Under the pieces are notes generated by a model. It saw only the letters and a list, made by a program, of their open reading frames with translations. It was not told the origin of the DNA and did not search any database. A stretch of 64,000 bases of DNA from Dictyostelium discoideum. Its lineage: Eukaryota. Each line of letters begins with the position of its first letter. Positions within the stretch are counted from its first letter, which is position 1. The position numbers and the translations under genes are program-made. Of this stretch, positions 2,820 through 29,714 are shown one piece after another. Location: contig CM000150.2 of NCBI GenBank assembly GCA_000004695.1, positions 2,400,001-2,464,000 of the forward strand, in the 5' to 3' direction.

Positions 2820-2919
2820 NNNNNNNNNNNNNNNNNNNNNNNNNNNNNNNNNNNNNNNNNNNNNNNNNNNNNNNNNNNNNNNNNNNNNNNNNNNNNNNNN
2901 NNNNNNNNNNNNNNNNNNN
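2820..2919. other. Assembly gap (100 N)
   Basis: A run of n characters. The flanks are retroelement ORFs on opposite strands, so the gap joins two different element copies. Confidence 0.95.
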
Positions 2920-3725: not shown

Positions 3726-3802
3726 TTTATTTTCTTTCTATCTTTTTTATTTTTCTTTAAAAAGTTAAAAATCTGGAAATTTTCTAATTAACTTGGTTCC
3801 CA

Positions 3803-3848
<46 letters not shown>

Positions 3849-3851
<3 letters not shown>

Positions 3852-4690
3852 TCTTTTTTATATGAAAAATGAAATAATCAAAAAAAGAGATTGTTGTTGT
3901 TGTTTGTTTTTTTCGATCTGATTATTTTTTGCTTTTTTTTTGAAAATTTTGCTACGCAAAATTCTCAAAACGAAACAAATAATAAATTACAATAAAGTAA
4001 AAAGATGGCTTTTTAAAATAGTTTATTTATTTATTTATTTGTTTTTTAAGTCTTTTTTATATGAAAAATGAAATAATCAAAAAAAGAGATTGTTGTTGTT
4101 GTTTGTTTTTTTCGATCTGATTATTTTTTGCTTTTTTTTTGAAAATTTTGCTACGCAAAATTCTCAAAACGAAACAAATAATAAATTACAATAAAGTAAA
4201 AAGATGGCTTTTTAAAATAGTTTATTTATTTATTTATTTGTTTTTTAAGTCTTTTTTATATGAAAAATGAAATAATCAAAAAAAGAGATTGTTGTTGTTG
4301 TTTGTTTTTTTCGATCTGATTATTTTTTGCTTTTTTTTTGAAAATTTTGCTACGCAAAATTCTCAAAACGAAACAAATAATAAATTACAATAAAGTAAAA
4401 AGATGGCTTTTTAAAATAGTTTATTTATTTATTTATTTGTTTTTTAAGTCTTTTTTATATGAAAAATGAAATAATCAAAAAAAGAGATTGTTGTTGTTGT
4501 TTGTTTTTTTCGATCTGATTATTTTTTGCTTTTTTTTTGAAAATTTTGCTACGCAAAATTCTCAAAACGAAACAAATAATAAATTACAATAAAGTAAAAA
4601 GATGGCTTTTTAAAATAGTTTATTTATTTATTTATTTGTTTTTTAAGTCTTTTTTATATGAAAAATGAAATAATCAAAAAAAGAGATTGA
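3849..4690. repeat. 199-bp tandem repeat, about 4.2 units (A-module array of TRE5-A)
   Basis: The unit aagtcttttttatatgaaaaatgaaataatc... restarts at 3849, 4048, 4247, 4446 and 4645 (period 199). The same unit in reverse complement is found at 12003-12290 and 24915-25250. Confidence 0.85.
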
Positions 4691-4736
4691 AAATAAATAA
4701 ATAAATAAATTGTTTTAATCTCAAAAATTCAAAAAT

Positions 4737-4808
4737 GGCTCCTTAGCATAGTGGTATTGCGCTTCCCTAGTAAGGAAGAGGTCATGAGTTCGATCCTCAT
4801 AGGAGCCT
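4737..4808 (+). tRNA. tRNA-Thr (anticodon AGU)
   Basis: GGCTCCT/AGGAGCC acceptor stem; A box TAGCATAGTGG; anticodon stem CTTCC/GGAAG with loop CTAGTAA; T arm ATGAG-TTCGATC-CTCAT (B box GGTCATGAGTTCGATCC). Folded by eye. Confidence 0.8.
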
Positions 4809-4820
4809 TTTAAACCAAAG

Positions 4821-4847
4821 GGATAAAAATCGCAGGTTCGATTCTAG
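4821..4847 (+). promoter_or_regulatory. External B box (exB) about 25 bp downstream of tRNA-Thr
   Basis: ggataaaaatcgcaGGTTCGATTCtag matches the B-box consensus GGTTCGANTCC without a tRNA body. Dictyostelium tRNA genes commonly carry an extra B box downstream. Confidence 0.5.
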
Positions 4848-4931
4848 TTCAAAAATATTCTGAACCTATTCATTTTTAAATTTAAATTAAAATTAATAAA
4901 ACTAGTTTTATTATTGGTTATTTCCTAAAAT

Positions 4932-7386
4932 AAGCATGGGATATCAAATTAAAACTCCACCTGCATCAAGAAACACCAAGCAAATACCTCACAAGTATCC
5001 TTAAATCCAGAGCCAAAGATAAATCAATATTCCAAATAAAAGATAAAGATAATAAGACCATATCAGATAAAGAGAACATAGCAAAAAGATTTGTTGAATT
5101 CTATCAAGATCAATATGAAGAGAAAGAAGATAACGAAGAAACCCACAAGAAGTTATTAGAAAAATGGGAAGTAGACGTTGATTTAATCAAGAAACTCGAG
5201 ATAGACAGACCGTTAAGAATACATGAAGTGACCAAAGCAATCAAAACTTCAAGTATCCACAAATCTCCAGGTTTAGACGGTATCAATGCACTATTCTACA
5301 AGTACCACATCAACTCAATAGCAAGAATATTGACTATAGCTTTCAACGACCTCCTCACAAATAAGAAAGAAATCCCCACAAAATTCAAAGAAGGAGTAAT
5401 AACAACAATATTCAAAACAGGAGATGAACTAAACATTTCAAATAGAAGACCAATCACCCTTCTCAATACAGATTACAAAATTTTAAGCAAAATTCTCAAC
5501 AGTAGATTATTAGATATCACCAGTAAAATTATCAACAAATTTCAAAACGGCTTTGTTCCAAACAGGTTCATCCAAGACAATATTCAGATCATGAAGGAAG
5601 TAATAGAAATAAGTAACAAAAGAAAGAACAATACACTCATTACCTTTTACGATTTTAACAAAGCATTCGATTCAATCAGCCACAAGAGTATCACAAGAAC
5701 ATTAGAGCATATTGGTATCCCCCCAAAATTCACAGCGATCCTACTAAACCTACTCAAAGATACTAAAAACAAAATAAAGATCAACGACTTTTTAGTCAAT
5801 GGAATAACAATCAGAAGAGGAACAAAACAAGGAGACCCAATATCACCAACAATCTTTGCTCTAGTTTTAGAACCACTTCTAATAGATATCATCAATGATA
5901 ATACAATCAAAGGCTTCACTCTACCAAATTCCAAATCATTAAAACTCACTGCATTTGCTGACGACATAGCAACATTTACAAACTCCACAGAAGAACTAAT
6001 GAAAATTAATACTAAAATCCAAAAGTACTGCTCAGCAACATCATCATCGTTAAACAAAGAGAAAACAGTAATGATAGCAATAGGAGATAAACCACACGAT
6101 CTACCATTCCAAGAGAGTACAGTCCCAGAAAGATATCTTGGCCTCAATTTCACCAAAACAGGTTTAAATTCAAAATACAACACTTTAATCCAAGAAATGA
6201 AAAACAATCTAATCAAATGGAAATCACAAGCAATAACGATGAAGGCAAAGATGACAATTCTCAAAACATACGTTCTATCCAAATTAACATACCATCAATA
6301 CATGGATAATCTAAATGAAGAACAAATTGAGGAAATCAATAACATGACCAGATGGTTCTTATTCTCCTCAGTTAAGAATACATATACAGAAGAGAGAAAA
6401 TACAAAACTATGATGAAAATAGACAGAGCATATGCAGATTGGAAAGAAGGAGGCATAAAATTATGGGATATAGAACTAAGACATATAGCATTCAAAATCT
6501 GGTACATGAACAGGCTACTCCATAACAACTACAACAACAACAACAATACCTTACAAGAATGGTACATGGAGCAATTAAGTAGAAAAAAAGCCCACACTTC
6601 AACCCTCAACGATATGTGCAGACACTGGGGTGTATTCAGAGTCAAATTTTACCAAAACCATCCAAAGATAAATGAACTTCCAGGCTGTATAAGAAACGAC
6701 AATGACGAACCACTAAAACTAAAAGAAATTTACGAACTCATGATCAAAGACAGACACCCAACACCAAGAAGAACAGAATGGCAGAAGTTATGGGCGGTGA
6801 GATACAACACAGCAATACCCAAAGTATTCATAAACATCAACAGCATTTCTCACCAAAAAGGTAGAAACACCCTCTTCAGATTCTTCTCAAGATCACTTCC
6901 AGGTATCAACCACGAAAGAGACACCAGATGCAAGATCTGTGGCCACCTATTCAGAGACCCTTATTCTCACCTCTTCACTCTATGCCAAGATATCCTAGAT
7001 ATTGAAAAAACCATCATATCAACAGTTAACAAATTATCATTCATCAAAATCCACAGATGGTCAATGGAAACCTTAGACATATCAAAATACAACAGAACTG
7101 AGAGAATCTTCCCCAATCTCATAGGAATAATAGCACACCAATTATGGAAGATAATCTGTCACAAATTGTTCAACACTGATGAAAGCAAACCAGAGCCAAA
7201 ATTCGAGCAAAAGGTCATAGAAACAGAATTACTAAATCTCATCGAAACTGAAAAATTCATCACACTAAAGAAAATCAAACACGACGAAGCAATACTAAAA
7301 AACACCAATCAAGATCTTCACAAATACAAATTCAACAAAGCCTGGCAAACCCCAGTAGTTCCGAACCCTCTTCCAATTTAAGTAGT

Positions 7387-7978: not shown

Positions 7979-8348
7979 ATATTTTTTAATTTTTTTTTTT
8001 TTTTAATAAAAATTTTCAAAGAATTAACCCAATCACACATGTCCCAAAATTATTATGACAATACAGACTTTCTTTCTTTCACATTCTAAAATGAAATCGA
8101 ATTAATTTCATTCTTTTTGATAATGGTTTATTTTCGATGTTTTGATTTTATTTTTATATTTAAACTCTTTAATAATTTTAATTTTTATTAATCAATCAAA
8201 CATAAATTTAATATATACATATAATAAATATAAATAATTATAAATTAATAAATAATAATATTAAAAAAATCATATATTAATAATATAAATAAATAGCCAT
8301 AAATTAAAAATCATTTTTTTAAAAAAAAATATATATTTAAAAAAAAGA

Positions 8349-8934
8349 ATGACAAAATTAAAAGTTGGAAATATTGCACCAGATTTTGAAGCTAAAAATT
8401 ATTTAGGTCAAACAGTTACATTAAAAGAATTTAAAGAAAAGAGTCAACCAATCGTTTTATATTTTTATCCAAAAGATAATAGTCCAGTATGTACAAAAGG
8501 TAAGTCAATTTATATTAAATGTTTTTTTTTATTTTTTTTTTTAAATTACTAATAATAAATAACCTTTTTAATATAATAATTCATACATACATACAAACAC
8601 ACACATATATATCAATATAGAGAGTTGTGAATTTAGAGATAAATATCAAAAGTTTATAGAAGCAGGCGCAGAAGTAATCGGAGTCAGTAGCGATGGTGAG
8701 GATAGTCATAAATCATTCGTTTCAAAATATTCATTACCATTCACATTATTAACAGATAAACATAGTAAATTAGCCAAGTTATATGGTGTCAACGGTATAT
8801 TATTACCAGGTAGAAAAACATTTATAATTGATAAACATGGTATTATAGCTGGTATTCATGATGGTTTACTCAGCTCAACTTCTCATATCGATGAATCTTT
8901 AAAAATAATTGAAAAATTAAAATCACAAATCTAA
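8349..8934 (+). CDS. Peroxiredoxin of the BCP/PrxQ type (thioredoxin fold), copy 1. Two exons: join(8349..8499,8621..8934).
   Basis: [50 protein letters not shown], then [48 protein letters not shown].... This is the BCP signature (P..D.TPVCT.E...FRD). Intron 8500-8620 (gtaagt...atatag), phase 1. Confidence 0.75.
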
Positions 8935-9081
8935 ATAATAATTTTTATAATAAATTGTACATGCCCACCCACCTTTGTAATTTTTTTTTATAATAAATTG
9001 TAAATTTTTACGTTTTATAATAACTCCAATATTTCTTAAAGTTTAAATAATTTATTTAAAAGTTTTTTAAAAAATTTAAAA

Positions 9082-9116
<35 letters not shown>

Positions 9117-10093
9117 ATATTTAAAACATAAAGTTCTTCTGAAAGCCTGTAAAGGTTTTGAAAAGTTATATGGTAACAATTGTTATTATTTTTAGATTTG
9201 TTTTTTCTTTAAAAGTTCATAACTAAATCTAATCTTTTGAGTGTTGTAATATAATTGTGTAATAATTAAATTGTTACAATAAAATAATGTTTTATCAACA
9301 TATTAAATTAGATATAATCTCGCTCTCAAACTAAAATAATTTATGATTATAATTAGACTTTTCTCACCTAGGTGGGAAAAAGCCACTTGGTGAGTTTTTA
9401 ATGTCGATTGAAAAACTTATAAACATAATTTCAAATCTCAAATATAAAAAGTAAAAATTTTCAATAGTAAAAGACATTCATAATAAATTTTAGATTTTGT
9501 CGATAACATCAACTTATTACTTTATTTTTATTTATATATATTTATTTATTTATTTTAATTTTATTTTTCTATTACAAGATTCTGATAAAACATGAGCAAT
9601 AATTTAGGCGAGTATTTTTAACTAATTTTATTTAACTAATAAATCATTTATATAAATTATTGTGTTAATGTTCAACATTTGAGGGTATATTTGATAAATC
9701 CTGAAATTAAAAGATAACTAACCAAAAAATTTATAATTTTAAAAAAGAGAGGGAAGAAGAGCAACTAAATTATTTATTAATAATAACACAAACCTACTCT
9801 AATAGATCAAATTACAAAAACATTATTATTTTCATCTTTTTTAAATACCTTTTTTTTTTTTTTTGGAATATTTAAAAAAAAAAAAAAAGATAAATAATGT
9901 TTTGCGTTTGATGTATTAATACACAAAATCACAGAAATATTTTTGAATTTTTTTTTTTTTCAATATTTCATTCCTAATTTTTTACTTCTTTTTAATTAAA
10001 ACCATCATTTTTTAACTTTTGGTGGCACTAATGATGGCACCAATGCCAAAAATCTTTTATTAGTTTTTTTAAAGAAATTTCATTATCTTTTCT

Positions 10094-11873: not shown

Positions 11874-11960
11874 AGACCCCTCAGGGAGTTGAACCCTGGA
11901 CCAACTGCTAACTTCTTACGTTTTGGAGACAATTACAATAAACCACTATGCTAAGGAGTC
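11874..11960 (-). tRNA. tRNA-Trp (anticodon CCA) with a ~13-nt intron 3' of the anticodon loop
   Basis: RC sequence: GACTCCT TA GCATAGTGGTTTAT TGT A ATTGT CTCCAA [AACGTAAGAAGTT] A GCAGT TGGTC CAGGG TTCAACT CCCTG AGGGGTC T. The acceptor stem pairs (with one G-U). The T arm carries a B box. A TTTTTT terminator lies immediately downstream (11867-11873). Confidence 0.7.
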
Positions 11961-12002: not shown

Positions 12003-12272
12003 TATTTCGATCGATCGAAAAAAACAAACAACAACAATCTCTTTTTTTGATTATTTCATTTTTCATATAAAAAAGACTTAAAAAACAAATAAATAAATAA
12101 ATAAACTATTTTAAAAAGCCATCTTTTTACTTTATTGTAATTTATTATTTGTTTCGTTTTGAGAATTTTGCGTAGCAAAATTTTCAAAAAAAAAGCAAAA
12201 AATAATCAGATCGAAAAAAACAAACAACAACAATCTCTTTTTTTGATTATTTCATTTTTCATATAAAAAAGA

Positions 12273-12308
<36 letters not shown>

Positions 12309-12748
12309 GGAACCCAAGTTAATCAGAAAATTTCCAGATTTTTAACTTTTTAAAGAAAAATAAAAAAAATAGAAAGAAAATAAGATGAAAATCACAAACA
12401 ACACCACAAATATTAAGCAACACAAATGCCTACAAAAAATAAGCGAAATTGTGGATAAAACTCAATTAAAAAAAAAACAATTCAAATACGTCATAAACAT
12501 CAATCACGAACCAGACGATAAAATAAAAAAAGATTTAGAAAAAAGTTTGGACAAAAAAGATGTTTTAATCAAAAGTAATAATACAATTCAAAATTCGAAA
12601 CAAAAAAAAAAAAAAAAAAAAAAAAAAGGTAAACCAACCCCTCTTTTAGAGACCCTGTAAAAAAAAAAAAAATAAAATAAAATGAGATCTAGCATCTCAA
12701 GGAGAAGCAAATAATAATTGCGTTATCCAATTCAAAAAAAAAAAAAAA
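12003..12748 (+). mobile_element. TRE5-A-type non-autonomous internal-deletion derivative: A-module x1.4, oligo(A), B-module (with the first ~90 codons of ORF1), A-run, C-module, oligo(A). It is 42 bp upstream of tRNA-Trp, head-to-head.
   Basis: A-module (reverse form) 12003-12290; A-run 12291-12311; cctgggaacccaagttaatcag...ATG MKITNN... 12312-12620; ggtaaaccaacccctcttttagagaccctgtaa + A15 + ataaaataaaatgagatct...ttatccaattc + A18, ending ~12748. The same B+C block terminates the full copy at 27521-27968. Confidence 0.6.
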
Positions 12749-13343
12749 TTTATATTTTTGTGGGTGACATGCTTTATATAGGTGAATACAATTACAATAA
12801 ACCACTATGCTAAGGAGTTATTGAAAACCAAATGGGTTAAACTCTTCGATTAAATTATCAAAATATAAAAAGCTAAGTTAAATATAAAAATAAATTAAAA
12901 TATACTTGTTAACTAAATTGCATTAGACCACTTTCCTTACACATGTAAAGAATGCTCTATTTCCTGCCCACAGCTTCTTGAATGAAAAAATTTAACCACG
13001 GGAGTTATGAATAAATATCTTGAATTCATTGAAACTGATAAAATCTAATTGTGTCTGGGAAGGTTGAACAGAATTTTGAATTCAAAATTAATATTATAAC
13101 TATAATTAATAAATAAAAAAATAAATAGATAATTAAAATTATAAAATACTTTAAGAATATATATAATTTCTAAAAGTAATTTTAGAAATAATAATTATAG
13201 GAATGAACCATCTTCGATACAATTTAATAAGTGTAATGAATACTCTAATACTTTACATGACACTTTAAATATTAATTTACACTTACTACTACTTTCCTTG
13301 AAAAAATGAAATAAACATCTTTGGGTTATTCCCTAAAAAGAAG

Positions 13344-13461
13344 ACACCTTAGCAAAGTGTATAACCCATTTGGTTTTCGATGACACCCAAGCAAAGTTTT
13401 TTACCCATTAGGTTATCTATGACAGTTTAGCGAAGTGTATTACCCATTTAGTATTCCTTAA
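13344..13461 (+). repeat. Three tandem ~39-bp units, each built from the first ~17 nt of tRNA-Ser (A box TTAGCAAAGTGG) plus the ~22-bp 5' leader (cccatttggttttcgat)
   Basis: gacaccttagcaaagtgtataacccatttggttttcgat / gacacccaagcaaagttttttacccattaggttatctat / gacagtttagcgaagtgtattacccatttagtattcctta. Compare the true gene at 14193-14235. RC copies at 27969-28082 and 24874-24914. Confidence 0.6.
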
Positions 13462-13466
13462 CAACT

Positions 13467-13870
13467 TTTTTTTGAATTGGATAACGCAATTATTAGTTGC
13501 TTCTCCTTGAGATGCAAGATCTCATTTTATTTGTAGTTTTTTACAGGGTCTCTAAAAGAGGGGTTAGTTTACTTTTTTTTTTTTTTTTTTTTTTGTTTCA
13601 AATTTTGAATTGTATTATTACTTTTGATTAAAACATCTTTTTTTCCCAAACTTTTTTCTAAATCTTTTTTTATTTTATCGTCTAGTTCGTGACTGATGTT
13701 GATGATATATTTGAATTGTTTTTTTTTATTTGAGTTTTATCCACAATTTCGCTTATTTTTTGTTGGCATTTGTGCTTAACTTGGTTGCCAGGTTTTTTTT
13801 TTTTTTTTTTTATTTTTTTTTTTTTTTTAGTCTTTTTATATGAAAAATGAAATAATCAAAAAAAGATACC
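13467..13870 (-). mobile_element. TRE5-A-type B-module + C-module fragment with the last 35 bp of an A-module (minus orientation), carrying a small deletion at the ORF1 start
   Basis: RC of the C-module (13475-13560), T-run, RC of the B-module/ORF1 start with an internal deletion (cctggcaaccaagttaag|cacaaatgcc), T-run 13789-13835, then the A-module end aagtctttttatatgaaaaatgaaataatcaaaaaaag. Confidence 0.5.
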
Positions 13871-14176
13871 TCCACCAAAGAATAAGTAACACTCCTACTT
13901 CATATATAAAACTGTGGGAAGAGGAACTCAAAAACAACAACAACAACAAAACAACAACAACAAAACAAAATCAACTACACTGGCAATGCAAGCAAGCATG
14001 GACCCAATTAAAAACTCCACAAAATAAACAAACACACTACGAAAACCTCCCAAAATTAAAAAAAATATACGAGGATATGATGACAACCCAATCTCCAGAA
14101 CACAACAAATTCATACCAACTCCTGGCCAAAAAGAAATAATTACCAAAATTAATAGCAAACACCTTCCTTTCCCTT
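13871..14176 (+). pseudogene. Internal TRE5-A-type ORF2 fragment (~100 codons, YLHQRISNTPTSYIKLWEEEL...KHLPF), fused to the A-module on its 5' side and to the tRNA-Ser leader on its 3' side at short microhomologies
   Basis: ~95% identical to 26563-26875 of the ORF2 copy. The 5' junction is at aaaaaaaga|tacctcc (shared aaga). The 3' junction is at cacctt|cc.. vs caccttagcaaagt. Track ORF 13840-14178 begins in the A-module (MKNEIIKK). Confidence 0.55.
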
Positions 14177-14215
14177 GACAACTTAGCAAAGTATTTTACC
14201 CATTTGATATTCGAT

Positions 14216-14296
14216 GACACCTTAGCAAAGTGGTTAATGCGGCGCCCTGCTAAGGCGTTCTCTTCGGAGGCGCAGGTTCGAACCCTGCAGGTGTCG
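14216..14296 (+). tRNA. tRNA-Ser (anticodon GCU), with a long variable arm
   Basis: GACACCT TA GCA AAGTGGTTAA TGC G GCGCC CTGCTAA GGCGT TCTCTTCGGAGGC GCAGG TTCGAAC CCTGC AGGTGTC G. The G73 discriminator is typical of tRNA-Ser. Confidence 0.85.
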
Positions 14297-14321
14297 AATT
14301 TTTAACTTCCAAACCTGAATA

Positions 14322-19164: not shown

Positions 19165-20027
19165 ACTACTTAAATTGGAAGAGGGTTCGGAATTGCTGGG
19201 GTTTGCCAGGCTTTGTTGAATTTGTATTTGTGAAGATCTTGATTGGTGTTTTTTAGTATTGCTTCGTCGTGTTTGATTTTCTTTAGTGTGATGAATTTTT
19301 CAGTTTCGATGAGATTTAGTAATTCTGTTTCTATGACCTTTTGCTGGAATTTTGGCTCTGGTTTGCTTTCATCAGTGTTGAACAATTTGTGACAGATTAT
19401 CTTCCATAATTGGTGTGCTATTATTCCTATGAGATTGGGGAAGATTCTCTCAGTTCTGTTGTATTTTGATATGTCTAAGGTATCCATTGACCATCTGTGG
19501 ATTTTGATGAATGATAATTTGTTAACTGTTGATATGATGGTTTTTTCAATATATAGGATATCTTGGCATAGAGTGAAGAGGTGAGAATAAGGGTCTCTGA
19601 ATAGGTGGCCCCAGATCTTGCATCTGGTGTCTCTTTCGTGGTTGATACCTGGAAGTGATCTTGAGAAGAATCTGAAGAGGGTGTTTCTACCTTTTTGGTG
19701 AGAAATGCTGTTGATGTTTATGAATACTTTGGGTATTGCTGTGTTGTATCTCACCGCCCATAACTTCTGCCATTCTGTTCTTCTTGGTGTTGGGTGTCTG
19801 TCTTTGATCATGAGTTCGTAAATTTCTTTCAGTTTTAGTGGTTCGTTATTGTCGTTTCTTATACAGCCTGGAAGTTCATTTATCTTTGGATGGTTTTGGT
19901 AAAATTTGACTCTGAATACACCCCAGTGTCTGCACATATCGTTGAGGGTTGAAGTGTGGGCTTTTTTTTTACTTAATTGCTCCATGTACCATTCTTGTAA
20001 AGTATTGTTGTTGTTGTAGTTGTTATT
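19004..20027 (-). mobile_element. TRE3-type element, 5'-truncated ~1-kb copy, with a 13-14-bp TSD. It is inserted into the older TRE fragment.
   Basis: Same 3' end as 10094-10847 and 7260-7542. T-run at 19004-19019. TSD tacccaaatgaag at 18991-19003 and 20028-20040. ORF2 C-terminal 287 aa (track 19170-20033). Confidence 0.7.
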
Positions 20028-20196
20028 ACCCAAATGAAGTGGAATATGATGGAGGTGTAGATTTTTTTTTTTTTTACCTAAAAGCGGTGTATTGTTATAT
20101 TTTATTACATTTTTAAATTTTTAGATTTTTAAATTTTTAAATTTTTATATTGTTATATGTTGATATTTTTGGTTATATTATGATTACTACTACTTG

Positions 20197-20226
<30 letters not shown>

Positions 20227-20227
<1 letters not shown>

Positions 20228-23200
20228 TATAATGGAATTGGGTTTGGAGTGTTCGGGTTATGCCATGATGTGTTGAAGTTGATTATTAATTGGTCTCTGT
20301 TATTTAATTTGTATATTGTTTCACTCCTTTCGATCTTCTTTATTAAAATGAATTTCTCTATTTTAATTAAGTTGGTTAGTTCTTTTTCAATTAATGTTGG
20401 ATCAAATGAGGGTGGAGTTTTAGATTCGTCTTGATTGAATAGTTTGTGACAAATTATTCTCCATAGTTGATGTATAATTATGCCGATTAAATTTGGGTAG
20501 ATTCTTTCTTTTTTATTTGTTTTGCTAATATCTAGTGAATTGAGATCCCAATTTCTGATCTTGAAGAATGAGAGATTGTTGAATGTTGAAATTATTATGT
20601 TTTCTATTTCTTTTACTTGCATACAGTCTATAAAAAGGTGAGTGTATGGGTCACGGATTATATTGTTACAGATTTTGCATGGTACGTTACGTTCATAGTT
20701 GATTCCAGGAAGTGACCTTGAGAAAAATCTGAATAGTGTATTTCTACCTTTTTGATGTGATATGTGGTTGATATGTTGGAAGATGGATGGTATGTTGATG
20801 TTATTTATTGAAATTAGATTTTTTTGTCCATCTGTTTTTCTTATTGATTTGTATTTGTGAGTGATTAACATGTTATAGATTTCTTTAAGTTGAAGTGGCT
20901 TTTTGTTTTGACCTTTGATACAATCAGGTAGTGATTTTAGTTTATTGTGTTGTGGTGCAAAGTTGTTTCTAAAATCTTTCCATCTGTCTACCATCTCTCT
21001 TAATCCAATTGATATATATTTGCTGTTGCTGATTTGTTCCATATACCATTCTTGTAGTATGTTGCATGCTTTTATCTTGATAATGTGTAATAATCTATTC
21101 ATGTTCCAAACTTTGAATGCTACTTGTCTGATACCTAAGTCCCACATCTTAATTCCACCTTCTTTCCAATCACCGTATGCTCTATCCATTGTCATTAATG
21201 TTCTATATTTATGTTCTTCTGTGTATGTATTTTTAATTGCGGAGAAGAGGAACCATTTAATGATATTGTTTAGTTCAGTAATGTGTGATTCATTTAGTGA
21301 GTCTAGATATTGATGGTAGGATAATCTCGATAGCGCATATGTTTTGACAATTGTCATCTTTGCTCTTATTGTAGTTGCTTGACTTTTCCAATTGTTTAAG
21401 CTATCTTTGATTGAGTTGATGATTGATGTGATTTTTGAATTGAGGCCCACTTTCGTGAAATTGAGACCCAAGTATCTTTCTGGAGCTTCACTAATCTTAA
21501 ATGGGAGGTTTGGTGGTATATTACCAATGCATATCATAACAGTTTTCTCTTGATTAAGTTTTGAAGATGTACCTAGACAGTAGTTGTTGATTTTGTCCAA
21601 TACTAATTTTAATTCTTCTGCTGAGTTGTTGAAAGTTGACATATCATCTGCGAATGCTGTTAGCTTGATTCTTTTCTGGTCTGATAATTTAAATCCTTTA
21701 ATTTCGATTTCTTTAAGTATATCAATTAGTAGTGCTTCCATTACAAGTGCAAATATTGTTGGTGATAATGGATCTCCTTGTTTTGTGCCTCTGTTAACTG
21801 TAATGTGTCCCACCAGGAAGTCATTTATCTTGATCTTATTCGTTGTTTCTTTTAATAGATTCATTATTAATTCTACTATCGTTTTTGGTATGCCAATGTG
21901 GCTCAATGTTCTTCTGATACTTTTGTGGCTAATTGAGTCGAAAGCTTTGTTGAAATCGAAGAATGTGATTAACGTAGTACTATTTCTTGATTTGTTTGCT
22001 CTTTCGATTACCTCCTTCATTATTTGAATATTATCTTGGATGTAACGATTTGGAACAAACCCATTTTGAAATTTGTTTATTATTTTCTTTGTAACTGCAA
22101 GTAAACGGTTGTTGATGATCTTACTTAATAGTTTGTAGTCCGTATTGAGTAGAGTAATTGGTCTTCTATTAGCTATTTGTAGTTCGTCTCCTTTCTTGAA
22201 TAGTGTTGTGATAAATCCTTCTTTGAAGTTGGGATTGATTTCTTTTTGATTAGTTAATGTATCATTAAATACTTTTGCTAAGATTGTTGAAAGTGATGCA
22301 GAGTGGTTTCTATATAATGCAGCATTGATTCCATCTAGTCCTGGAGATTTGTGTGGATTAGAATTTTTAATTGCATTATTGACTTCTTTTGGTGTGATTG
22401 CACTATCTAATGATAGTCTGGAAATGTATTGTTTGTCCACTATCCATTTATCCAATAGTTCCTTGTGTTTACTTTCATTATCTGGTTTTTCATCGTATTG
22501 TTCTTGATAGAATTCTAAGAAGCATTTGGCTATTTCAACTTTTTCTGATACAATTGTTCCATCTTTATTTTTAATTTGGAATATGGATCTGTCCTTTTTC
22601 CTTTTCTTTAGTTTACTTGTTAGATATCTACTTGGAGTTTCTTGGTTTAAGTGAAGTTTCAATTTGGTTTCCCATTGTTTATTTGCTTCTTCTTCTTTCA
22701 ATAACTCTTCCATTTCGTCTTCTAGTTGCTTTCTTTGACCAGGGTATAAATCTTCTCTTTCAATTAATCTATGTAACCTACTCTTCTTTTTGTTTTTTTC
22801 CTTTTTTATCAAGTTCTGTTGCTTTTTGAGATGGTGCCTGATTGTATAATTCTTAAAGTGGATCCAGTCATCTAGTGTGTTGATGTATTGTTTGTTGTTT
22901 TCTATGATTTGCGAGATTTCTTCATGAATTGTTGGATCAGCCAATGTTTCTTTGCATAATGTCCACGGGAGTTTTTCAATTTTGATGTTGTTGATGTTGA
23001 TATCGTTTGCGCTATTGTTATTCATTTTTAAATCTATTGAAATAGGTGTGTGGTCAGATTTGTTGTAAATATCTTCATGCACCCTTAGCGGGTTTGAACC
23101 CACCATTGTTGGTTTACAATAAATTCTGTCCAATCTGCTATTAGATCTTGAAAAAGTTGCGATATTGTTGTTTGCACCTATATCTTTCAGGTTGCTTTCT

Positions 23201-23676
23201 TCAATTATACTTCTGATACCAATACCATAGTGTGAATTGTTGTTGTGGTCTGCATTAAAGTCACCTGCAATGATGTCATGTTTGATTTTTTGATCTTTAA
23301 TGAGATTCTTTGCTGCTATAATGAATGCATTTCTTCTAGGTATTGATGCTGGGGCATAAATTAAAAGGATGTTGATGTTGATATACGAATTGAATTTAAC
23401 TGATAATATTCTACCTTCTGTATCTTTGAAATTTACTGTTAGATAGCCAGTGCTTAAATTTCTATTCTCTATTGATACACCAGTGCCTTTACCGTTTCCA
23501 TGATCTATCCTTTCATAGTTGAACATTGATTTATAATGATTGAATGTTGAACCGTTTGTTTCTGTAAGTAATGTGATTTGGGGACCTATTCTCTTGATCG
23601 TTTCTTCAGCTTTTTTATTTGAGAGAGGGCTTGAACTACCTCTGCAATTCCATAATAAAATTTTTAATTTTTCCAT
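20227..23676 (-). CDS. ORF2 (1149 aa) of the TRE3-type element: AP-endonuclease, reverse transcriptase, C-terminal CCHC zinc finger
   Basis: MEKLKILLWNCRGS...(APE: GDFNADHNN, SDHTPIS), HKSPGLDGINAALY, NRRPITLLNTDYKLLSK, FFDFNKAFDSISH, TKQGDPLSP, FADD, ...PCKICNNIIRDPYTHLFIDC. Single uninterrupted ORF. Confidence 0.8.
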
Positions 23677-23883
23677 CCTCTTGATAGGGTTGGGTTACCA
23701 TTTGGTGGTTGACCACCACTTGGTTTTGTTTGTGTAGTAATATTGTTTGTTGTATTTGAGTTGTTTAATTTATTTGTGATGATTGTTTTGTTGTTGTTGT
23801 TGACATTTTTGTCGTTGTTATTATTGCTGTTGTTATTATTATTGTTGTTGTTGTTGGAGTTATTGGAGTTATTGGAGTTATTG

Positions 23884-23945
<62 letters not shown>

Positions 23946-24404
23946 TTGTATTATATTTGTATTATTGTTAGGTTGATTGGTTGTTGTTTGTTTTTTGTTT
24001 TTCTTTTTAGCTTCCTCCCTATCTTCTCTACTAATAGATTCACAGAAGTATACTTTAATTTGATTGTTGTTGTTTTTATATGATTGAATTTGATTATTGA
24101 TTATATTTGTATTTGTTGATTTGTTGAATAGTATTATTGCTGAATATCTGTGCACATCATTCATAATTTTAACGTTGCATTCATCAACTTCCTCTGCTTC
24201 TACTCCCATGTTTGTTTGTACATCTTCTTTTGTTATTGCTTTTGTTATATTTTTTGTGAAGGTATGGAAGTGGAGGTAGTGGTGATTAGGAAAGTATGGG
24301 ATGAATCTTTGAATTCTATATATTCCATCCTCATCCTTTATTTGAAATGTGCAAAATGAATCGTGTAGATGTTTCAAATTTTCTTTTAGAATTCTACCCA
24401 ACAC
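23664..24404 (-). CDS. ORF1 (246 aa) of the TRE3-type element, with N-rich low-complexity C-terminal half
   Basis: MLGRILKENLKHLHDSFCTFQIKDEDGIYRIQRFIPYF.... It lies directly upstream of ORF2 and overlaps it in a different frame, as is typical of non-LTR elements. Confidence 0.5.
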
Positions 24405-24551
24405 TGTTATACCTTTTGATTTTCTAATTATTGTTTTATCTTTGAGGAGTGTATTGTCAATGAATTTGAGAGTATTACTATTTAATTCTGCTGTATTTGG
24501 GTAGTATAGTCTGATTTTATATGTTGAGTTATTTAGTAATTCTTCATTGAA

Positions 24552-24753: not shown

Positions 24754-24792
24754 TATTTTATTACGTGATAAAAAAAAGATAAAAAGATAGAT

Positions 24793-24873
24793 CGACACCT
24801 GCAGGGTTCGAACCTGCGCCTCCGAAGAGAACGCCTTAGCAGGGCGCCGCATTAACCACTTTGCTAAGGTGTC
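24793..24873 (-). tRNA. tRNA-Ser (anticodon GCU), second copy
   Basis: Exact reverse complement of the 14216-14296 gene. The 5' leader cccatttggttttcgat is conserved. Confidence 0.85.
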
Positions 24874-25240
24874 ATCGAAAACCAAATGGGTAATACACTT
24901 CATTTAACCAAATGTGTAAAGGAGATCGAAAAAAAACAAACAACAACAACAATCTCTTTTTTTGATTATTTCATTTTTCATATAAAAAAGACTTAAAAAA
25001 CAAATAAATAAATAAATAAACTATCTTAAAAAGCCATCTTTTTACTTTATTGTAATTTATTATTTGTTTCGTTTTGAGAATTTTGCGTAGCAAAATTTTC
25101 AAAAAAAAGCAAAAAATAATCAGATCGAAAAAAAACAAACAACAACAACAATCTCTTTTTTTGATTATTTCATTTTTCATATAAAAAAGACTTAAAAAAC
25201 AAATAAATAAATAAATAAACTATCTTAAAAAGCCATCTTT

Positions 25241-25771
25241 TTACTTTATTGGTGTATTGTATGGAGATGGTGGTTCAATAGGTTTTTCTGATTTTGTTTT
25301 AATTTCTTGATTTTTTATCGATTGGGTATTGATCTCATTCTCTATTCTTGTTAGTTCATCTACGTTTTCTAGTGATGCATCTATTACCTTTTGAGCTGTA
25401 TCATCTAGGGCCATAAATGTTTTATCATTAGATGAGGAGGTGATTGGTGGGATAATGATTGTTCTTTTTCCTTGTTTTGGTATTTGTTCTGATGTAGATT
25501 TTGGTTGTTGTTCATCTGATTGTTTTTTATTTTTGTTTTCTTCTTGATTTTCTGGTAATGAGGTTTGATCTCTCCATCCTTTGTTGGAGTGACCAATTAA
25601 TGTTAGATTGTCTAGTTCAATGATAGTATCATATTCTTCTACGACTCTTTTCACTGTTTTGATAATTAGAGTTTCGCCTTTAATTTCAGATTTAATTAGT
25701 TTACATCCTTCATTTTCTATTACCCATTCTATTTCTGTGAGTGATTTATACCAATCGAAATCCGTATACAT
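25241..25771 (-). pseudogene. Inverted 3' segment of TRE5-A-type ORF1 (…MYTDFDWYKSLTEIEWVIENEGCKLIKSEIKG…EPPSPYNTPIK*) inside the rearranged copy
   Basis: 94% identical to 2920-3470. The breakpoint at ~25800 runs into the plus-strand ORF2. Confidence 0.55.
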
Positions 25772-25799
25772 ATTTTTGGTCTTAGAGTGGTTATAAATT

Positions 25800-27457
25800 G
25801 TCCTTTTAAACTACCACTCAAAATGGTCCTCACAATAATGAACTTACTCAATGAATCAGAAACATCAGTGTACATCAATAACTCATTATCTAAAAGCTTT
25901 ACATCAAAAAGAGGAACCAAACAAGGTGATCCTATCTCTCCCACTATCTTCGCATTAGTGGTTGAATGCATGGCAACTACTATAATAAATGACCGCTGCA
26001 TCAATGGTGTAACCAAAGAAACCATTAAAATACTACAGTTCGCCGATGATACAGCAACAATAGCATACAACTTTATGGACCATTTCCTCATGAATGAATG
26101 GATCAAGAAGTTTTGCCAAGCAACCAGCGCAAAAATAAACCAAACCAAATGCTCGTGTATCACTTTCAAATGGAACACCAGAACGCTATACACCGTCATA
26201 AAATCAAACGAAAGGTACCTCGGCTTTGACTTCAACAATAAGGGTATCAAATCCAAAATCAATACAATCTCAGACAACATCAGAGCTAAACTAGTAACAT
26301 GGAACTCAACTTCATCAACCTATATGGGCAGACTCATAATGGCAAAAACATATGCACTATCTCAGTTAACGTTCCACACTTACATCAACACCACACCACA
26401 ACACAATAGTATTGAAAATAACATCGTAAAATTCGTTTTCAACACAAAATCTAAAAACTCTCTTTCACTACAAAGAAGACAAAACAACTATATCAATGGT
26501 GGCCTAAACTTATGGAACCTGAAGACAAGAGAACTAGCACAGAAAGCATGGTTATTCGAAAGATACCTCCACCAAAGAGTAAGTAACACTCCTAGTTCAT
26601 ATATAAAACTGTGGGAAGAGGAACTCAAAAACAACAACAACAACAAAACAACAACAAAACAAAATCAACTACAACTACACTGGCAATGCAAGCAAGCATG
26701 GACCCAATTAAAAACTCCACAAAATAAACAAACACATTACGAACACCTCCCAAAATTAAAAAAAATATACGAAGATATGATGACAACTCAATCTCCTGAA
26801 CACAACAAATTCATACCAACTCCTGGCCAAAAAGAAATAATGACCAAAATTAATAGCAAACACCTTCCATTTAAAGAAATCAAAAAAATAATAAACATGA
26901 AAGGTAGAGATCTATTATGGAGATACACACTGAAAGCACTACCAAAAATATACAACATGCCATGCCAACAGTGTGGGGAAGATGAGACCTCAGAACATAT
27001 ATTCTTCAACTGCAAAGCCCACATCAAAAACACACAAGAAATCTTCAACTACACCCTAACTAAGTGTGGACACACCACTCACACCTGGAATGTGAAGATT
27101 TTAAACCATCTACAAATTGCACTAGTAGCCAATTTAATAGCTATTATATTCGATAAAATCTGGCACAAAAGAAATAAACTCATTCACGATGAAAAAGAAA
27201 TAATAATTCACAGACAACAAGTCATACGTGAACTAATTAAAACACAAAGAGCTGCATGGGACAGGACACAAGCGGTTATAAACAAAACATTAAGAATCAA
27301 ATCAAAGCAACGGCCAGAAGAACAAAATAAATTAGACTCACTAATCTCGCTAAAGCTATTACAATTTAGCAGACAATGGAACTCACCTCTTCACGCAATA
27401 GAACTTCCTAAACATCTCAAAAAATACAATAATTCACTCAGTACTTTCTATAAATAA
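25800..27457 (+). CDS. TRE5-A-type ORF2, 3' part (RT C-terminal region and C-terminal domain with a Cys/His cluster)
   Basis: SKRGTKQGDPISPTIFALVVE, QFADDTATIA, ...NMPCQQCGEDETSEHIFFNCKAH. Same subfamily as 1-2819 and 13871-14176. Confidence 0.7.
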
Positions 27458-27516
<59 letters not shown>

Positions 27517-27968
27517 GGAACCCAAGTTAATCAGAAAATTTCCAGATTTTTAACTTTTTAAAGAAAAATATAAAAAATAGAAAGAAAATAAAATGAAAAT
27601 CACAAACAACACCACAAATATTAAGCAACACAAATGCCTACAAAAAATAAGCGAAATTGTGGATAAAACTCAATTAAAAAAAAAACAATTCAAATACGTC
27701 ATAAACATCAATCACGAACCAGACGATAAAATAAAAAAAGATTTAGAAAAAAGTTTGGACAAAAAAGATGTTTTAATCAAAAGTAATAATACAATTCAAA
27801 ATTCGAAACAAAAAAAAAAAAAAAAAAAAAAAAGTAAACTAACCCCTCTTTTAGAGACCCTGTAAAAAAAAAAAAAAAATAAAATAAAATGAGATCTAAC
27901 ATCTCAAGGAGAAGCAACTAATAATTGCGTTATCCAATTCAAAAAAAAAAAAAAAAAAAAAAAAAAAA

Positions 27969-28082
27969 CCAAATGTGTAATACACTTTGCTAAGGTGTCA
28001 TCGAAAACCAAATGGGTAATAAACTTTGCCAAGGTATCATCGAAAAATATTTGGTGATACACTTCGCTAAGGTGTCATTGAA
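27969..28082 (-). repeat. Three tandem ~39-bp tRNA-Ser leader/A-box units in reverse orientation, abutting the poly(A) end of the TRE5-A copy
   Basis: ccaaatgtgtaatacactttgctaaggtgtcatcgaaaaccaaatgggtaataaactttgccaaggtatcatcgaaaaatatttggtgatacacttcgctaaggtgtcattg is the RC of the unit seen at 13344-13461. Confidence 0.55.
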
Positions 28083-28474
28083 AAATAAACCACCACAAGA
28101 CTAATTTTTTAATTAATAATTTTTTTTTTAATTGTTTTATTGTTTTTTTTTTTTTTTTTTTTAAGACTGTGGCGCTGACTATAATAATTTTTGAACCTTT
28201 ATTGAAATATAATTAAAAAAATACAAAAAATAAAAATAATTAGTAAAGTGACTGTTTTTTTATTTTTATAAAAATATTTTATAATATAAGTTGTTTTCTT
28301 TATTTATTTGTTTATTTATTTATTTTAATTTTTTTTTATTTTAAAAAAAAAAAAGTTTAAAACTTTTAAAATTATTTAAACTTTAAGAATTATTGGAGTT
28401 ATTTGGAATATTATAAAACAAAAAAAAATTACAAAGGTGGGTGGATATGTGCAATTTATTATAAAAATTATTAT

Positions 28475-29089
28475 TTAGATTTGTGATTTTAATTTTTCTA
28501 TTATTTTTAAAGATTCATCGATATGAGAAGTTGAGCTGAGTAAACCATCATGAATACCTGCTATAATACCATGTTTATCGATTATAAATGTTTTTCTACC
28601 TGGTAATAATATACCGTTGACACCATATAATTTGGCTAATTTACTATGTTTATCTGTTAATAATGTGAATGGTAATGAATATTTTGAAACGAATGATTTA
28701 TGACTATCTTCGCCATCGCTACTGACTCCAATTACTTCTGCGCCTGCTTCTATAAACTTTTGATATTTATCTCTAAATTCGCAACTCTCTATATTGATAT
28801 ATGTATGTGTGTAGGTATGTATGTATGTATGTTGGTGATATTATTATATTTAAAAGGTTATTTATTATTAGTATATTAAAAAAAAAGAAAAAAAACATTT
28901 AAGTTTATTGTATTATGTAATAATATTAACTAACTTACCTTTTGTACATACTGGACTATTATCTTTTGGATAAAAATATAAAACGATTGGTTGACTCTTT
29001 TCTTTAAATTCTTTTAATGTAACTGTTTGACCTAAATAATTTTTAGCTTCAAAATCTGGTGCAATATTTCCAACTTTTAATTTTGTCAT
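28475..29089 (-). CDS. Peroxiredoxin of the BCP/PrxQ type, copy 3. Two exons: complement(join(28475..28788,28939..29089)).
   Basis: Reverse complement of copies 1 and 2, with the same exon lengths (151 and 314 nt) and a phase-1 intron (acttac..ctatat on the plus strand). The upstream promoter block is also conserved (29330-29400). Confidence 0.75.
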
Positions 29090-29714
29090 TCTTTTTTTTA
29101 TATATATATTTTTTATTTTTTTTTAAAAATGATTTTTTAATTTATGATTATTTATTACTGATTATTAATTTATGATTATTTATTAGTGATTATTAATTTA
29201 TGATTTCTATTTAATACTATTATTTGTTAATTTATATTTATTATATGTATAAATTAATTTATATTTGATTGGTTAATAAAAATTAAAATTATTAAAGAGT
29301 TTAAATATTAAAAATAAATTCTAAACATTGAAAATAAACCATCGTCGAAAAGAATGAAATTTATTCGATTTCATTTTAGAATGCGAAAGAAAGAAAGTCT
29401 GTGTGTATCGTCATATTAATTTTGGGACAGGGTGTGATCACGTTAATTCTTTGAAAATAATTATGGAAAAAAAAAAAAAAAAAATAAAAAAATAAAAATA
29501 AAAAAAATTTTGGCTTGGAACTCTTTTTTATTTTTTTAATACTTTTTTTATTTAATAATATTTTATTTTATTTTATTTTATTTTATCTTATTTTATTTAT
29601 TAATATTTTTTTTTTTTTTTTTTTTTTATTATTTTTATTATTAGAAATACATTAAGTATAATTATTATATTATTATATTATTATTATTATTATTTTTTAT
29701 TTTTTTTATTTTTT

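Follow-up and report, generated by a model that had tools for sequence, protein, structure and literature searches.

A TRE5-A.1-derived insertion with an inverted piece of ORF1 upstream of a tRNA-Ser gene of Dictyostelium discoideum

Why does a retrotransposon copy upstream of a tRNA gene of Dictyostelium discoideum carry a part of its first open reading frame backwards, and did this composite arise by one insertion or by two? The copy resides in a stretch of 64,000 nucleotides (hereafter the window; assembly GCA_000004695.1, contig CM000150.2, positions 2,400,001 to 2,464,000). Its region 24920-27968 represents a single, very young insertion that descends from TRE5-A.1 (formerly DRE), the autonomous non-LTR retrotransposon that targets tRNA genes and is organized as AB-ORF1/ORF2-BC. 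The non-autonomous TRE5-A.2 (AB-ORF1-BC) is characterized by a large ORF2 deletion and a 72-bp deletion in BC (PMC3159450). In the copy analyzed here, sense A-modules come first; they are followed by the backwards piece of ORF1 and then by the 3′ half of ORF2 in sense orientation, B, C and poly(A). We read the internal A-run, the terminal poly(A) and the right copy of the target-site duplication directly from the sequence; all features are given below.

24792-24874, minus strand: tRNA-Ser(GCU) gene, the integration target (ARAGORN)
24908-24919, plus strand: target-site duplication, left copy, CCAAATGTGTAA (identical 12-mer at 27969-27980)
24920-24922, plus strand: 5′ junction, extra AG (24920-24921) before the G of the canonical GAGATCG terminus
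24923-25121, plus strand: full A-module (promoter module), 199 bp, 100% identical to full-length copies in L010 and L011
25122-25251, plus strand: second A-module, truncated after position 130 by the left junction, 100% identical to 24923-25052
25245-25251, no strand: left microhomology TTTATTG, 7 bp, A-module 124-130 versus reverse complement of ORF1 nt 824-830
25245-25809, minus strand: internal piece of ORF1 in inverted orientation, nt 265-830 (aa 89-277 of 444)
25808-25809, no strand: right microhomology AA, 2 bp, reverse complement of ORF1 nt 265-266 versus ORF2
25808-27457, plus strand: sense ORF2 3′ part, last 1,650 nt including the stop, 99.9% identical to L017
27458-27512, plus strand: internal A-run from the ORF2 stop to the 3′ B-module, same layout in full-length copies
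27513-27809, plus strand: 3′ B-module, no difference from those of eight other copies (292/292)
27834-27940, plus strand: complete C-module, identity 96-98% to most full-length copies and 94.6% to L017
27941-27968, plus strand: terminal poly(A)
27969-27980, plus strand: target-site duplication, right copy, CCAAATGTGTAA

The initial annotation had described A-modules running straight into reverse-complemented ORF1 sequence and a switch at about 25800 to sense ORF2, followed by B, C and poly(A). Both statements held: A-module sequence (24923-25251) passes without a spacer into ORF1 sequence (25245-25809), and the switch was placed at 25808-25810. The alignment to ORF1 that it had suggested for finding the breakpoints located them at nt 265 and 830, and the piece, which had been taken for the ORF1 3′ end, turned out to be 566 nt from the middle of ORF1, abutting the second A-module directly. 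The supposed ORF1 stop at 25241-25243 belongs to A-module sequence and was created by the junction. It terminates a 176-aa open reading frame on the minus strand (25241-25771), which is 98% identical to residues 102-277 of P0003; the canonical 444-aa ORF1 reads on as ...NTPIK-QHGETK... past this point. The start had been set at 24915, but the element proper begins at 24920 and the nucleotides 24915-24919 are part of the target-site duplication.

The A-modules of the copy (329 nt) showed no mismatch to full-length TRE5-A.1 copies, and the complete module at 24923-25121 shares 98.5% identity with the A-module array of window positions 3823-4689. Following TTTATTG, the canonical A-module reads on as TAATTTATT. 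The ORF2 part is 99.88% identical to L008, L010 and L011, and 548 of 550 residues match residues 431-980 of P0037. Its match to the Pfam family RVT_1 (205 profile positions) begins at position 106; on the full ORF2 the breakpoint falls within RVT_1, and both the endonuclease region and the reverse transcriptase's N-terminal half are gone. Another A-run separates B, which ends at 27809, from C, which starts at 27834. The copy opens with A-modules and closes with B, C and poly(A), and both termini are those of TRE5-A. The copy lacks the remainder of the A array, the 5′ B-module and ORF1 nt 1-264, as well as a further 2,289 bp (reference 1223-3511) comprising the 3′ part of ORF1 and the 5′ half of ORF2. 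The rearrangement pattern is deletion-inversion-deletion and no intact open reading frame is left. As the copy encodes no intact protein, it is incapable of mobilizing itself.

The termini of the composite disclose the hallmarks of a single-unit insertion. [quoted passage not shown] TRE5-A integrates 47±3 bp upstream of tRNA genes with its 5′ end toward the tRNA (PMC5391098), and the copy conforms to this rule in both distance and orientation. A single 12-bp target-site duplication encloses the whole composite, as is usual for TRE5-A; the left 12-mer is followed by element sequence, the right one by the flank tacactttgc. In four of nine copies inspected GAGATCG came directly after the flank, and two more exhibited CAGATCG or AAGATCG. 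Additional nucleotides at the 5′ end are a typical trait of TRE5-A (PMC5391098).

For the left junction a 19-bp inverted microhomology had been claimed. The 19-mer concerned, ccatctttttactttattg, has seven occurrences in the window, all of which fall in A-modules; none is a reverse complement. We determined the lengths of the microhomologies by a three-way comparison of the junction, the canonical A-module or ORF2, and canonical ORF1. Since canonical ORF1 and the A-module have just TTTATTG/CAATAAA in common, the left microhomology amounts to 7 bp and not to 19 bp. An overlap of at least 7 bp was obtained in a fraction of 0.0016 of 200,000 random A/ORF1 junctions; the 2 bp at the right junction are within chance (P for 2 bp or more = 0.23). 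Both junctions are seamless, and the strings CATCTTTTTACTTTATTGGTGTATTGTATGGAGATGG and GGTTATAAATTGTCCTTTTAAACTACCACTCAAAATGGTCC, 40 nt each, span the two breakpoints. Seamless joins, microhomologies of 7 bp and 2 bp and an inverted segment from the same source sublineage together are consistent with template switching at microhomologies.

Since the inverted piece lacks a 3′ end and a poly(A), it cannot be an insertion in its own right. A full minus-strand TRE5-A copy, which would have accounted for 25241-25800 in another way, was not found around the piece. The proposal that the composite goes back to a template switch or inversion in one unit rather than to two insertions is supported by the single target-site duplication, the canonical 5′ end and the shared sublineage, yet the evidence originally offered for it (19 bp, ORF1 stop, ORF1 3′ end) was wrong and the two large deletions had been left undescribed.

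For the identification of the source lineage, ten full-length loci were reached via the protein cluster member P0047. On the opposite strand, full-length TRE5-A.1 copies match the inverted piece at 99.8% identity. Compared with L008, L010, L011 and L017 it revealed no mismatch and one gap, and the ORF2 part differed from the same four copies by only 1-2 mismatches in 1,650 nt. The other eight full-length copies scored (L009, L012-L016) gave one mismatch in ORF1 and 3-4 mismatches in ORF2. As the ORF1 and ORF2 pieces are thus closest to the same four copies, they go back to one young source. A T6 run within the inverted piece is one T short in the window and has its six T in the assembly GCA_054883475.1; L001 equals the reference over the 566 nt of the ORF1 piece (100%). 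The ORF1 piece is of the TRE5-A.1 type and not of the TRE5-A.2 type (0 versus 13 mismatches). An older ORF1 segment, considered on account of 97.5% identity to the tRNA-Thr copy of the window and to the TRE5-A.2 of L002, was dismissed because full-length TRE5-A.1 gave no mismatches; the 13 differences are those between the TRE5-A.1 and TRE5-A.2 subfamilies. The inverted paralogous tRNA-Ser locus 11 kb away was also rejected as a donor, as it contains only old (86-96%) TRE5 pieces and no ORF1. L003 and L006 comprise 5′-truncated copies only, and the relatives in L004 and L005 (81-91% diverged) provided a mere proxy for the right junction. A protein search with the ORF2 N-terminus matched only two small proteins.

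The structure of the copy is real and unusual, but the rearrangement affects a single copy of an element that is well known. GCA_054883475.1, an independent gap-free assembly (3.2-Mb contig), is collinear with the window from 15208 to 35690 (20 kb) at 99.2-99.7% identity, differs from it in homopolymer lengths and contains both junction strings exactly. In view of this agreement it is barely conceivable that repeat reads were misjoined, even though a 100-N gap (2820-2919) within another TRE5-A copy of the window indicates that such repeats were troublesome in assembly. In the two assemblies the junction-specific 176-aa product (DDB_G0270462) occurs once per genome, being present on two contigs only, which correspond to this one locus in AX4 and GCA_054883475.1, respectively; by comparison, up to 14 contigs carry the ORF1 products of ordinary copies. 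The protein P0009, a 177-aa ORF1 fragment of D. cf. discoideum, was excluded as the same rearranged form because it starts at the ORF1 N-terminus. Neither junction string was found in 15 other TRE5-A loci. The initial annotation had also suggested a search for the same inversion in other copies; about 22 further TRE5-A copies inspected, a sample biased to intact copies, contained no inverted piece, which suggests that such inversion events are rare. At the other tRNA-Ser gene we detected a second composite with a target-site duplication, an inverted fragment and a 5-bp junction microhomology. The locus is flanked by an intron-less Arf gene, whose product is on record only in GCA_054883475.1.

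With moderate confidence, we attribute the deletion-inversion-deletion to two microhomology-guided template switches during retrotransposition/reverse transcription. Target-primed reverse transcription would have set the copy 46 bp upstream of the tRNA-Ser gene, and one growing DNA strand would have swapped its template twice, on copies of the same element. The first switch would have been guided by the 7-bp TTTATTG/CAATAAA match of the A-module with ORF1, the second would have been a near-blunt 2-bp join of ORF1 with the RT region of ORF2. Two routes are conceivable: during second-strand synthesis the strand may have moved from the cDNA to plus-strand TRE5-A RNA and back, in a twin-priming-like manner, or during first-strand synthesis it may have moved to TRE5-A minus-strand RNA and back. 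PMC4559204 describes this minus-strand RNA as abundant. We count in favor of template switching the insertion hallmarks, the seamless junctions, the common source, the arm geometry, the supply of minus-strand RNA as a template, the second composite and the reality of the locus. The chance-level right junction, the departures from classical twin priming and the rarity of inverted pieces in other copies speak against it. Besides, the near-zero divergence leaves little time for a later rearrangement, whereas errors of reverse transcription arise at birth.

A rearrangement after integration, in which a full-length TRE5-A.1 was inserted and later underwent a switch of the FoSTeS/MMBIR type or multi-break repair, is a serious but rather unlikely alternative. 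It would have deleted approximately 3.4 kb and left the inverted 566-bp ORF1 piece, possibly as captured filler DNA or cDNA. The product would look no different if replication or break repair had reshaped a full-length copy already in place: the deletion-inversion-deletion, the 7-bp and 2-bp microhomologies and the nearby templated inverted segment fit, and the target-site duplication and canonical 5′ end are equally expected. Young TRE5-A copies do recombine as DNA, as seen from the B-to-B tandem arrays in L013 and L014, and genomic TRE5-A rearrangements are frequent (PMC5391098). The time window for such an event, however, was short, the mismatches to active copies being 0/329 in the A-modules, 0/565 in ORF1 and 1-2/1,650 in ORF2. 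Complex rearrangements at microhomologies are also expected to be much rarer per locus than errors of reverse transcription, which we count against this explanation.

The composite might also stem from two insertions and a deletion, but this appears improbable since three rare or specific steps would be needed. An older copy made by twin priming, consisting of an inverted ORF1 arm and the 3′ half of ORF2 with B and C, would have occupied the usual position, a newer full-length copy would have integrated between it and the tRNA gene re-using the same target bases, and a deletion at the 7-bp microhomology would have led from A-module position 131 of the new copy into the inverted arm of the old one. 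Tandems at one tRNA gene are indeed common (L002, L008, L009, L016; PMC5391098), position-specific integration duplicates the same bases, so that the outer target-site duplications would still match, and the inverted arm and the sense arm taken alone show twin-priming geometry. Yet the ORF1 and ORF2 pieces belong to the same best-matching sublineage, the near-zero divergence is equal in all parts, and twin priming would have to skip 2,289 bp anyway. We regard it as very improbable that the copy arose by retrotransposition from a non-autonomous master that was already rearranged and was mobilized in trans like TRE5-A.2. The A-module promoter and the intact C-module 3′ end, which trans-mobilization needs (PMC3159450), have been kept and the insertion hallmarks are complete. 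A master is opposed by the restriction of DDB_G0270462 to one locus in both assemblies, compared with up to 14 contigs for ordinary ORF1 products, and by the lack of either junction string in the 15 other TRE5-A loci.

The comparison with known systems places the copy close to TRE5-A.1. Its A-modules, ORF1, ORF2 3′ half and 3′ B are 98-100% identical to full-length copies, and C is 96-98% identical to most of them. It also agrees with TRE5-A.1 in its site 46 bp upstream of a tRNA gene toward which its 5′ end points, in the target-site duplication and in the extra 5′ bases. Unlike TRE5-A.1, it is devoid of the 5′ B-module, which carries the ORF1 start, of ORF1 nt 1-264 and 831-1335 and of the ORF2 5′ half; the remaining ORF1 is inverted, whereas the autonomous form has a complete 444-aa sense ORF1, and only the last 549 of about 1,070-1,140 ORF2 codons are left, with a broken RT domain. 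With TRE5-A.2 it shares the internal deletion, the non-autonomous state, the A-module promoter and the C-module end. TRE5-A.2, however, keeps B and a complete sense ORF1, while the copy has half of ORF2, an inverted ORF1 of the TRE5-A.1 type and a full-length BC lacking the 72-bp deletion. A literature search on a "TRE5-A.3" yielded nothing.

5′-inverted LINE-1 insertions were reportedly ascribed to twin priming by Ostertag and Kazazian in 2001. In classical twin priming, the inverted arm lies against the 5′ target-site duplication and few bases are lost at the inversion point. The copy resembles such insertions in that an inverted and a sense 3′ arm are combined in one insertion with the target-site duplication outside, the inverted arm originating from further upstream in the RNA (reference 1222 to 657; sense arm 3512 to the end). 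The polarity of the arms is the same, with the 3′-most base of the inverted arm away from the inversion point, and a priming-type microhomology marks the outer end of the inverted arm. The copy departs from twin-primed LINE-1 in that 329 bp of sense A-modules separate the target-site duplication from the inverted arm and that 2,289 bp are skipped at the inversion point. A literature search on twin priming in Dictyostelium revealed nothing relevant. FoSTeS/MMBIR are DNA-replication events in resident chromosomal DNA that produce deletion-inversion-deletion patterns. The two template switches, the 2-7 bp microhomologies, the short inverted segment templated nearby and the seamless junctions are in line with them, but the substrate here is a retrotransposon at or near insertion, for which the reverse transcriptase is an equally good candidate polymerase.

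If the structure did originate during reverse transcription, TRE5-A would be able to change to a template of the other strand in mid-synthesis and still complete a canonical full-length 5′ end, and behavior of the twin-priming type, known from the mammalian L1, would be shared by a tRNA-targeted element of an amoebozoan. The integration complex would then seem to contain second RNAs, among which the abundant minus-strand RNA is a possible candidate. A long shot is the idea, by analogy with maize Mu killer, that the copy is a natural antisense generator silencing the TRE5-A family in trans from a single locus. From the intact A-module promoter, 566 nt of antisense ORF1 fused to the sense ORF2-BC tail would be transcribed, and this fusion RNA might pair with the ORF1 mRNA of active TRE5-A.1 copies and feed the RNAi machinery. 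A related, similarly remote idea takes the structure for a fossil record of the TRE5-A reverse transcriptase copying the element's own minus-strand RNA. The wider biological importance of a single, dead, single-copy element is small. Nevertheless, the locus is a warning for annotation, since its junction yields the spurious 176-aa "gene" DDB_G0270462, the stop codon of which falls in promoter-module (A-module) sequence.

The window consists of AT-rich D. discoideum DNA with four tRNA genes, each of which (4/4) carries TRE5-type retroelement sequence approximately 45-50 bp upstream. The rearranged element was dissected using the full-length TRE5-A.1 copies of the second assembly (loci L008-L017, GCA_054883475.1) as reference, with coordinates taken from L010 (5609-11270; ORF1, 444 aa, at 393-1727; ORF2 end at 5161).

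Features of the rearranged TRE5-A copy (window positions)
24908-24919: target-site duplication, left copy, CCAAATGTGTAA
24920-24921: two extra bases, AG
from 24922: canonical 5' terminus, GAGATCG...
24923-25121: full A-module, 199 bp
25122-25251: second A-module, positions 1-130 only
25245-25809: reverse complement of ORF1 nt 830 to 265 (reference 1222 to 657)
25808-27457: last 1,650 nt of ORF2, sense (reference 3512-5161)
27458-27512: A-run
27513-27809: B-module
27810-27833: A-run
27834-27940: C-module
27941-27968: poly(A)
27969-27980: target-site duplication, second copy

Its position, orientation, modules and target-site duplication identify the element as a TRE5-A copy. The tRNA-Ser(GCU) gene (24792-24874, minus strand) has the first element base 46 nt away on its upstream side, and the element's 5' end points toward it; distance and orientation agree with the published integration rule of 47 ± 3 bp and strict orientation (PMC5391098). 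Most other full-length copies inspected also start with GAGATCG, plus or minus a few extra bases. Their tandem A-modules range from 2 to ~20 by motif counts, although the copies are nearly identical (L002, L008-L012, L015-L017).

The order of sense A-modules, antisense ORF1 and sense ORF2-B-C-poly(A), described in the initial annotation, proved to be real and, judged by the alignment, is far beyond chance. The inverted piece covers 566 nt at 99.8% identity without mismatches, one T being absent from a T6 run; in the second assembly this run is complete and the piece is 100% identical to the reference. Alignment of the breakpoints to ORF1, suggested in the same annotation, placed the piece at ORF1 nt 265-830 (codon 89 to codon 277). 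Hence it is not the ORF1 3' end, as had been supposed: the 176-aa ORF aligns to residues 102-277 of the 444-aa ORF1, and the TAA at 25241-25243, taken for the ORF1 stop, is A-module sequence, while the canonical ORF1 reads on (...NTPIK-QHGETK...). DDB_G0270462 (25241-25771, minus strand), annotated in strain AX4 on a 4.92-Mb record, is an internal ORF1 fragment of 176 aa beginning at an internal Met and using a stop codon in A-module sequence; it is an annotation artefact of the rearrangement.

Missing from the copy are the remaining A-modules of the array, the 5' B-module containing the start of ORF1 (PMC3159450), ORF1 nt 1-264, and 2,289 bp (reference 1223-3511) that take in the final 505 nt of ORF1 together with the 5' half of ORF2. 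Within ORF2 the break lies inside the RVT_1 domain, and no intact ORF is left. Because two deletions accompany the inverted piece, the event is a deletion-inversion-deletion and not a plain inversion. Unlike TRE5-A.1, the element lacks a 5' B-module and intact ORFs; from the non-autonomous TRE5-A.2 it differs in structure and ORF1 type, BC being full length (PMC3159450). We found no such form described in the literature accessible to us, to which the main TRE catalogue paper did not belong. We regard the copy as a new, single-copy and non-functional structural form of TRE5-A. The intact promoter module might drive an antisense-ORF1 transcript acting on active TRE5-A copies, but we consider this highly improbable.

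The exact 176-aa product was traced to a 3.2-Mb contig of GCA_054883475.1 (L001), which is free of Ns and runs collinear with positions 15208-35690 of the window at 99.2-99.7% identity, the differences being chiefly homopolymer-length changes. The strings spanning the two junctions (37 and 41 nt) were found exactly there and were absent from all other loci fetched. It is very unlikely that the same mis-join arose independently in two assemblies, so a mis-assembly was not borne out. The junction-specific product occurred on only two contigs in the collection, representing one locus in two assemblies; ordinary ORF1 products occurred on up to 14. Neither the same inversion nor any minus-strand TRE5-A piece was found in 15 other loci (~22 copies). 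Within this product search and the loci fetched, the form looks like a single-copy event.

Mismatches of the inverted ORF1 piece and of the ORF2 piece
L008, L010, L011, L017: 0 and 1-2
Other eight full-length copies scored (in L009, L012-L016): 1 and 3-4
TRE5-A.2-type: 13 (ORF1) and not applicable (ORF2)

The A-modules and the B-module were 100% identical to those of full-length copies. Together with the mismatch pattern, this indicates that all parts came from one very young TRE5-A.1 sublineage, which fits a single source molecule. An identity of 97.5% for the ORF1 piece was discarded: the comparison copies, including that at the window tRNA-Thr gene, had a TRE5-A.2-type ORF1.

Since the inverted piece has neither a 3' end nor poly(A), it does not represent a separate insertion, and the whole composite is bracketed by one target-site duplication and has a canonical capped-type 5' end. 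Thus, the proposed template switch or inversion within a single unit was retained, but not the 19-bp inverted microhomology invoked for it; the 19-mer occurs only in A-modules, seven times in the window, with no reverse complement. Three-way comparison with canonical A-module and ORF1 revealed a left junction overlap of 7 bp (TTTATTG, 25245-25251); that of the ORF1/ORF2 junction is 2 bp (AA, 25808-25809). When random junctions of these sequences were simulated 200,000 times, overlaps of at least 7 bp and 2 bp had frequencies of 0.0016 and 0.23, respectively.

Two template changes by a single DNA strand would explain the structure most simply. The first would have led from position 130 of the A-module onto ORF1 nt 830 of an opposite-sense template, guided by the 7 bp; the second, 566 nt later, onto ORF2 at reference 3512, where the overlap is 2 bp. 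During retrotransposition, second-strand synthesis may have left the cDNA for plus-strand RNA and then returned, in a twin-priming-like manner. The polarity of the arms agrees with that in twin priming of L1, but the element departs from twin priming in two defining features: its inverted arm does not reach the 5' target-site duplication, and 2.3 kb are skipped. Alternatively, first-strand synthesis may have moved onto TRE5-A minus-strand RNA, described as abundant in PMC4559204, and back. The same product could form after integration if a full-length copy already in place underwent break repair or replication-based template switching, but the copy has barely diverged from active ones, leaving a short time for later events. 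It could also stem from an old twin-primed copy if a new full-length one landed at the same hot spot and a deletion at the 7-bp microhomology then took place; tandems by repeated insertion are common (L002, L008, L009, L016; PMC5391098). Because of the near-zero divergence, and because reverse-transcription errors come free at birth, we favour, as an inference, an origin of the rearrangement at the reverse-transcription stage, to which we give about an even chance.

The window's other tRNA-Ser(GCU) gene (14215-14297, plus strand) has a second, older composite TRE5 insertion on its upstream side, at 13454-14182 (element ~13466-14169), between the copies of an imperfect target-site duplication (TTCCTTAACAAC / TTCCCTTGACAAC). 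From the tRNA side, an inverted 310-bp ORF2 fragment (13862-14171; 95-96% to TRE5-A.1) precedes a 5'-truncated A(33-98)-B-C element (13866 to 13466; 86-90%); by eye, the two overlap by 5 bp (AAAGA) where they meet. This shows that inverted-fragment chimeras with target-site duplication recur in this family, and speaks to some extent for an origin at the stage of reverse transcription. For the geometry of the second composite to agree with twin priming, ORF2 must have preceded an A-B-C block in the source RNA, as in the BC.ABC subform, or two RNAs must have been used.

An old inverted segmental duplication (~7980-9120 vs 28357-29206, ~88-90% identity) comprises both tRNA-Ser(GCU) genes with the 39-bp repeats upstream of them and adjacent Redoxin/AhpC genes; each of its arms independently gained a TRE5 insertion containing an inverted fragment. 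The repeats, farther upstream of either gene than the TRE5 insertion, amount to some three decayed 39-bp units in tandem (27965-28084 and 13343-13456; TRF copy numbers 3.1 and 2.9), each containing the first ~20 nt of the tRNA (GATGACACCTTAGCAAAGTG) and ~19 nt of upstream flank. A partial 5' self-copy (~12790-12835) is likewise present upstream of tRNA-Leu(CAA) (11874-11960), and a minimal A-A'-B-C element without ORFs (12013-12748) lies 52 bp upstream of this gene.

The minus-strand TRE5-A at tRNA-Thr has 4.4 A-modules (4689-3823), B (3861-3515) and ORF1 of TRE5-A.2 sequence type from 3725, interrupted by an assembly gap of 100 N (2820-2919); left of the gap is an RT-encoding ORF of a different element family (1089-2942, plus strand). 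Downstream of tRNA-Ser(GCU) 24792-24874, a near-complete minus-strand non-LTR element (19170-24540), by its position presumably TRE3-type, contains an intact 1,149-aa endonuclease and RT ORF (20227-23676), to which the RT ORF downstream of tRNA-Thr (5228-7381) is related. In the second assembly, L013 and L014 (CM142511.1, ~3.02-3.04 Mb) hold three or more full-length TRE5-A.1 units in tandem, linked through their B-modules (..B-ORF1-ORF2-B-ORF1-ORF2-B..). Such arrays imply that the 5' and 3' B-modules recombined unequally, and not that insertion was repeated.
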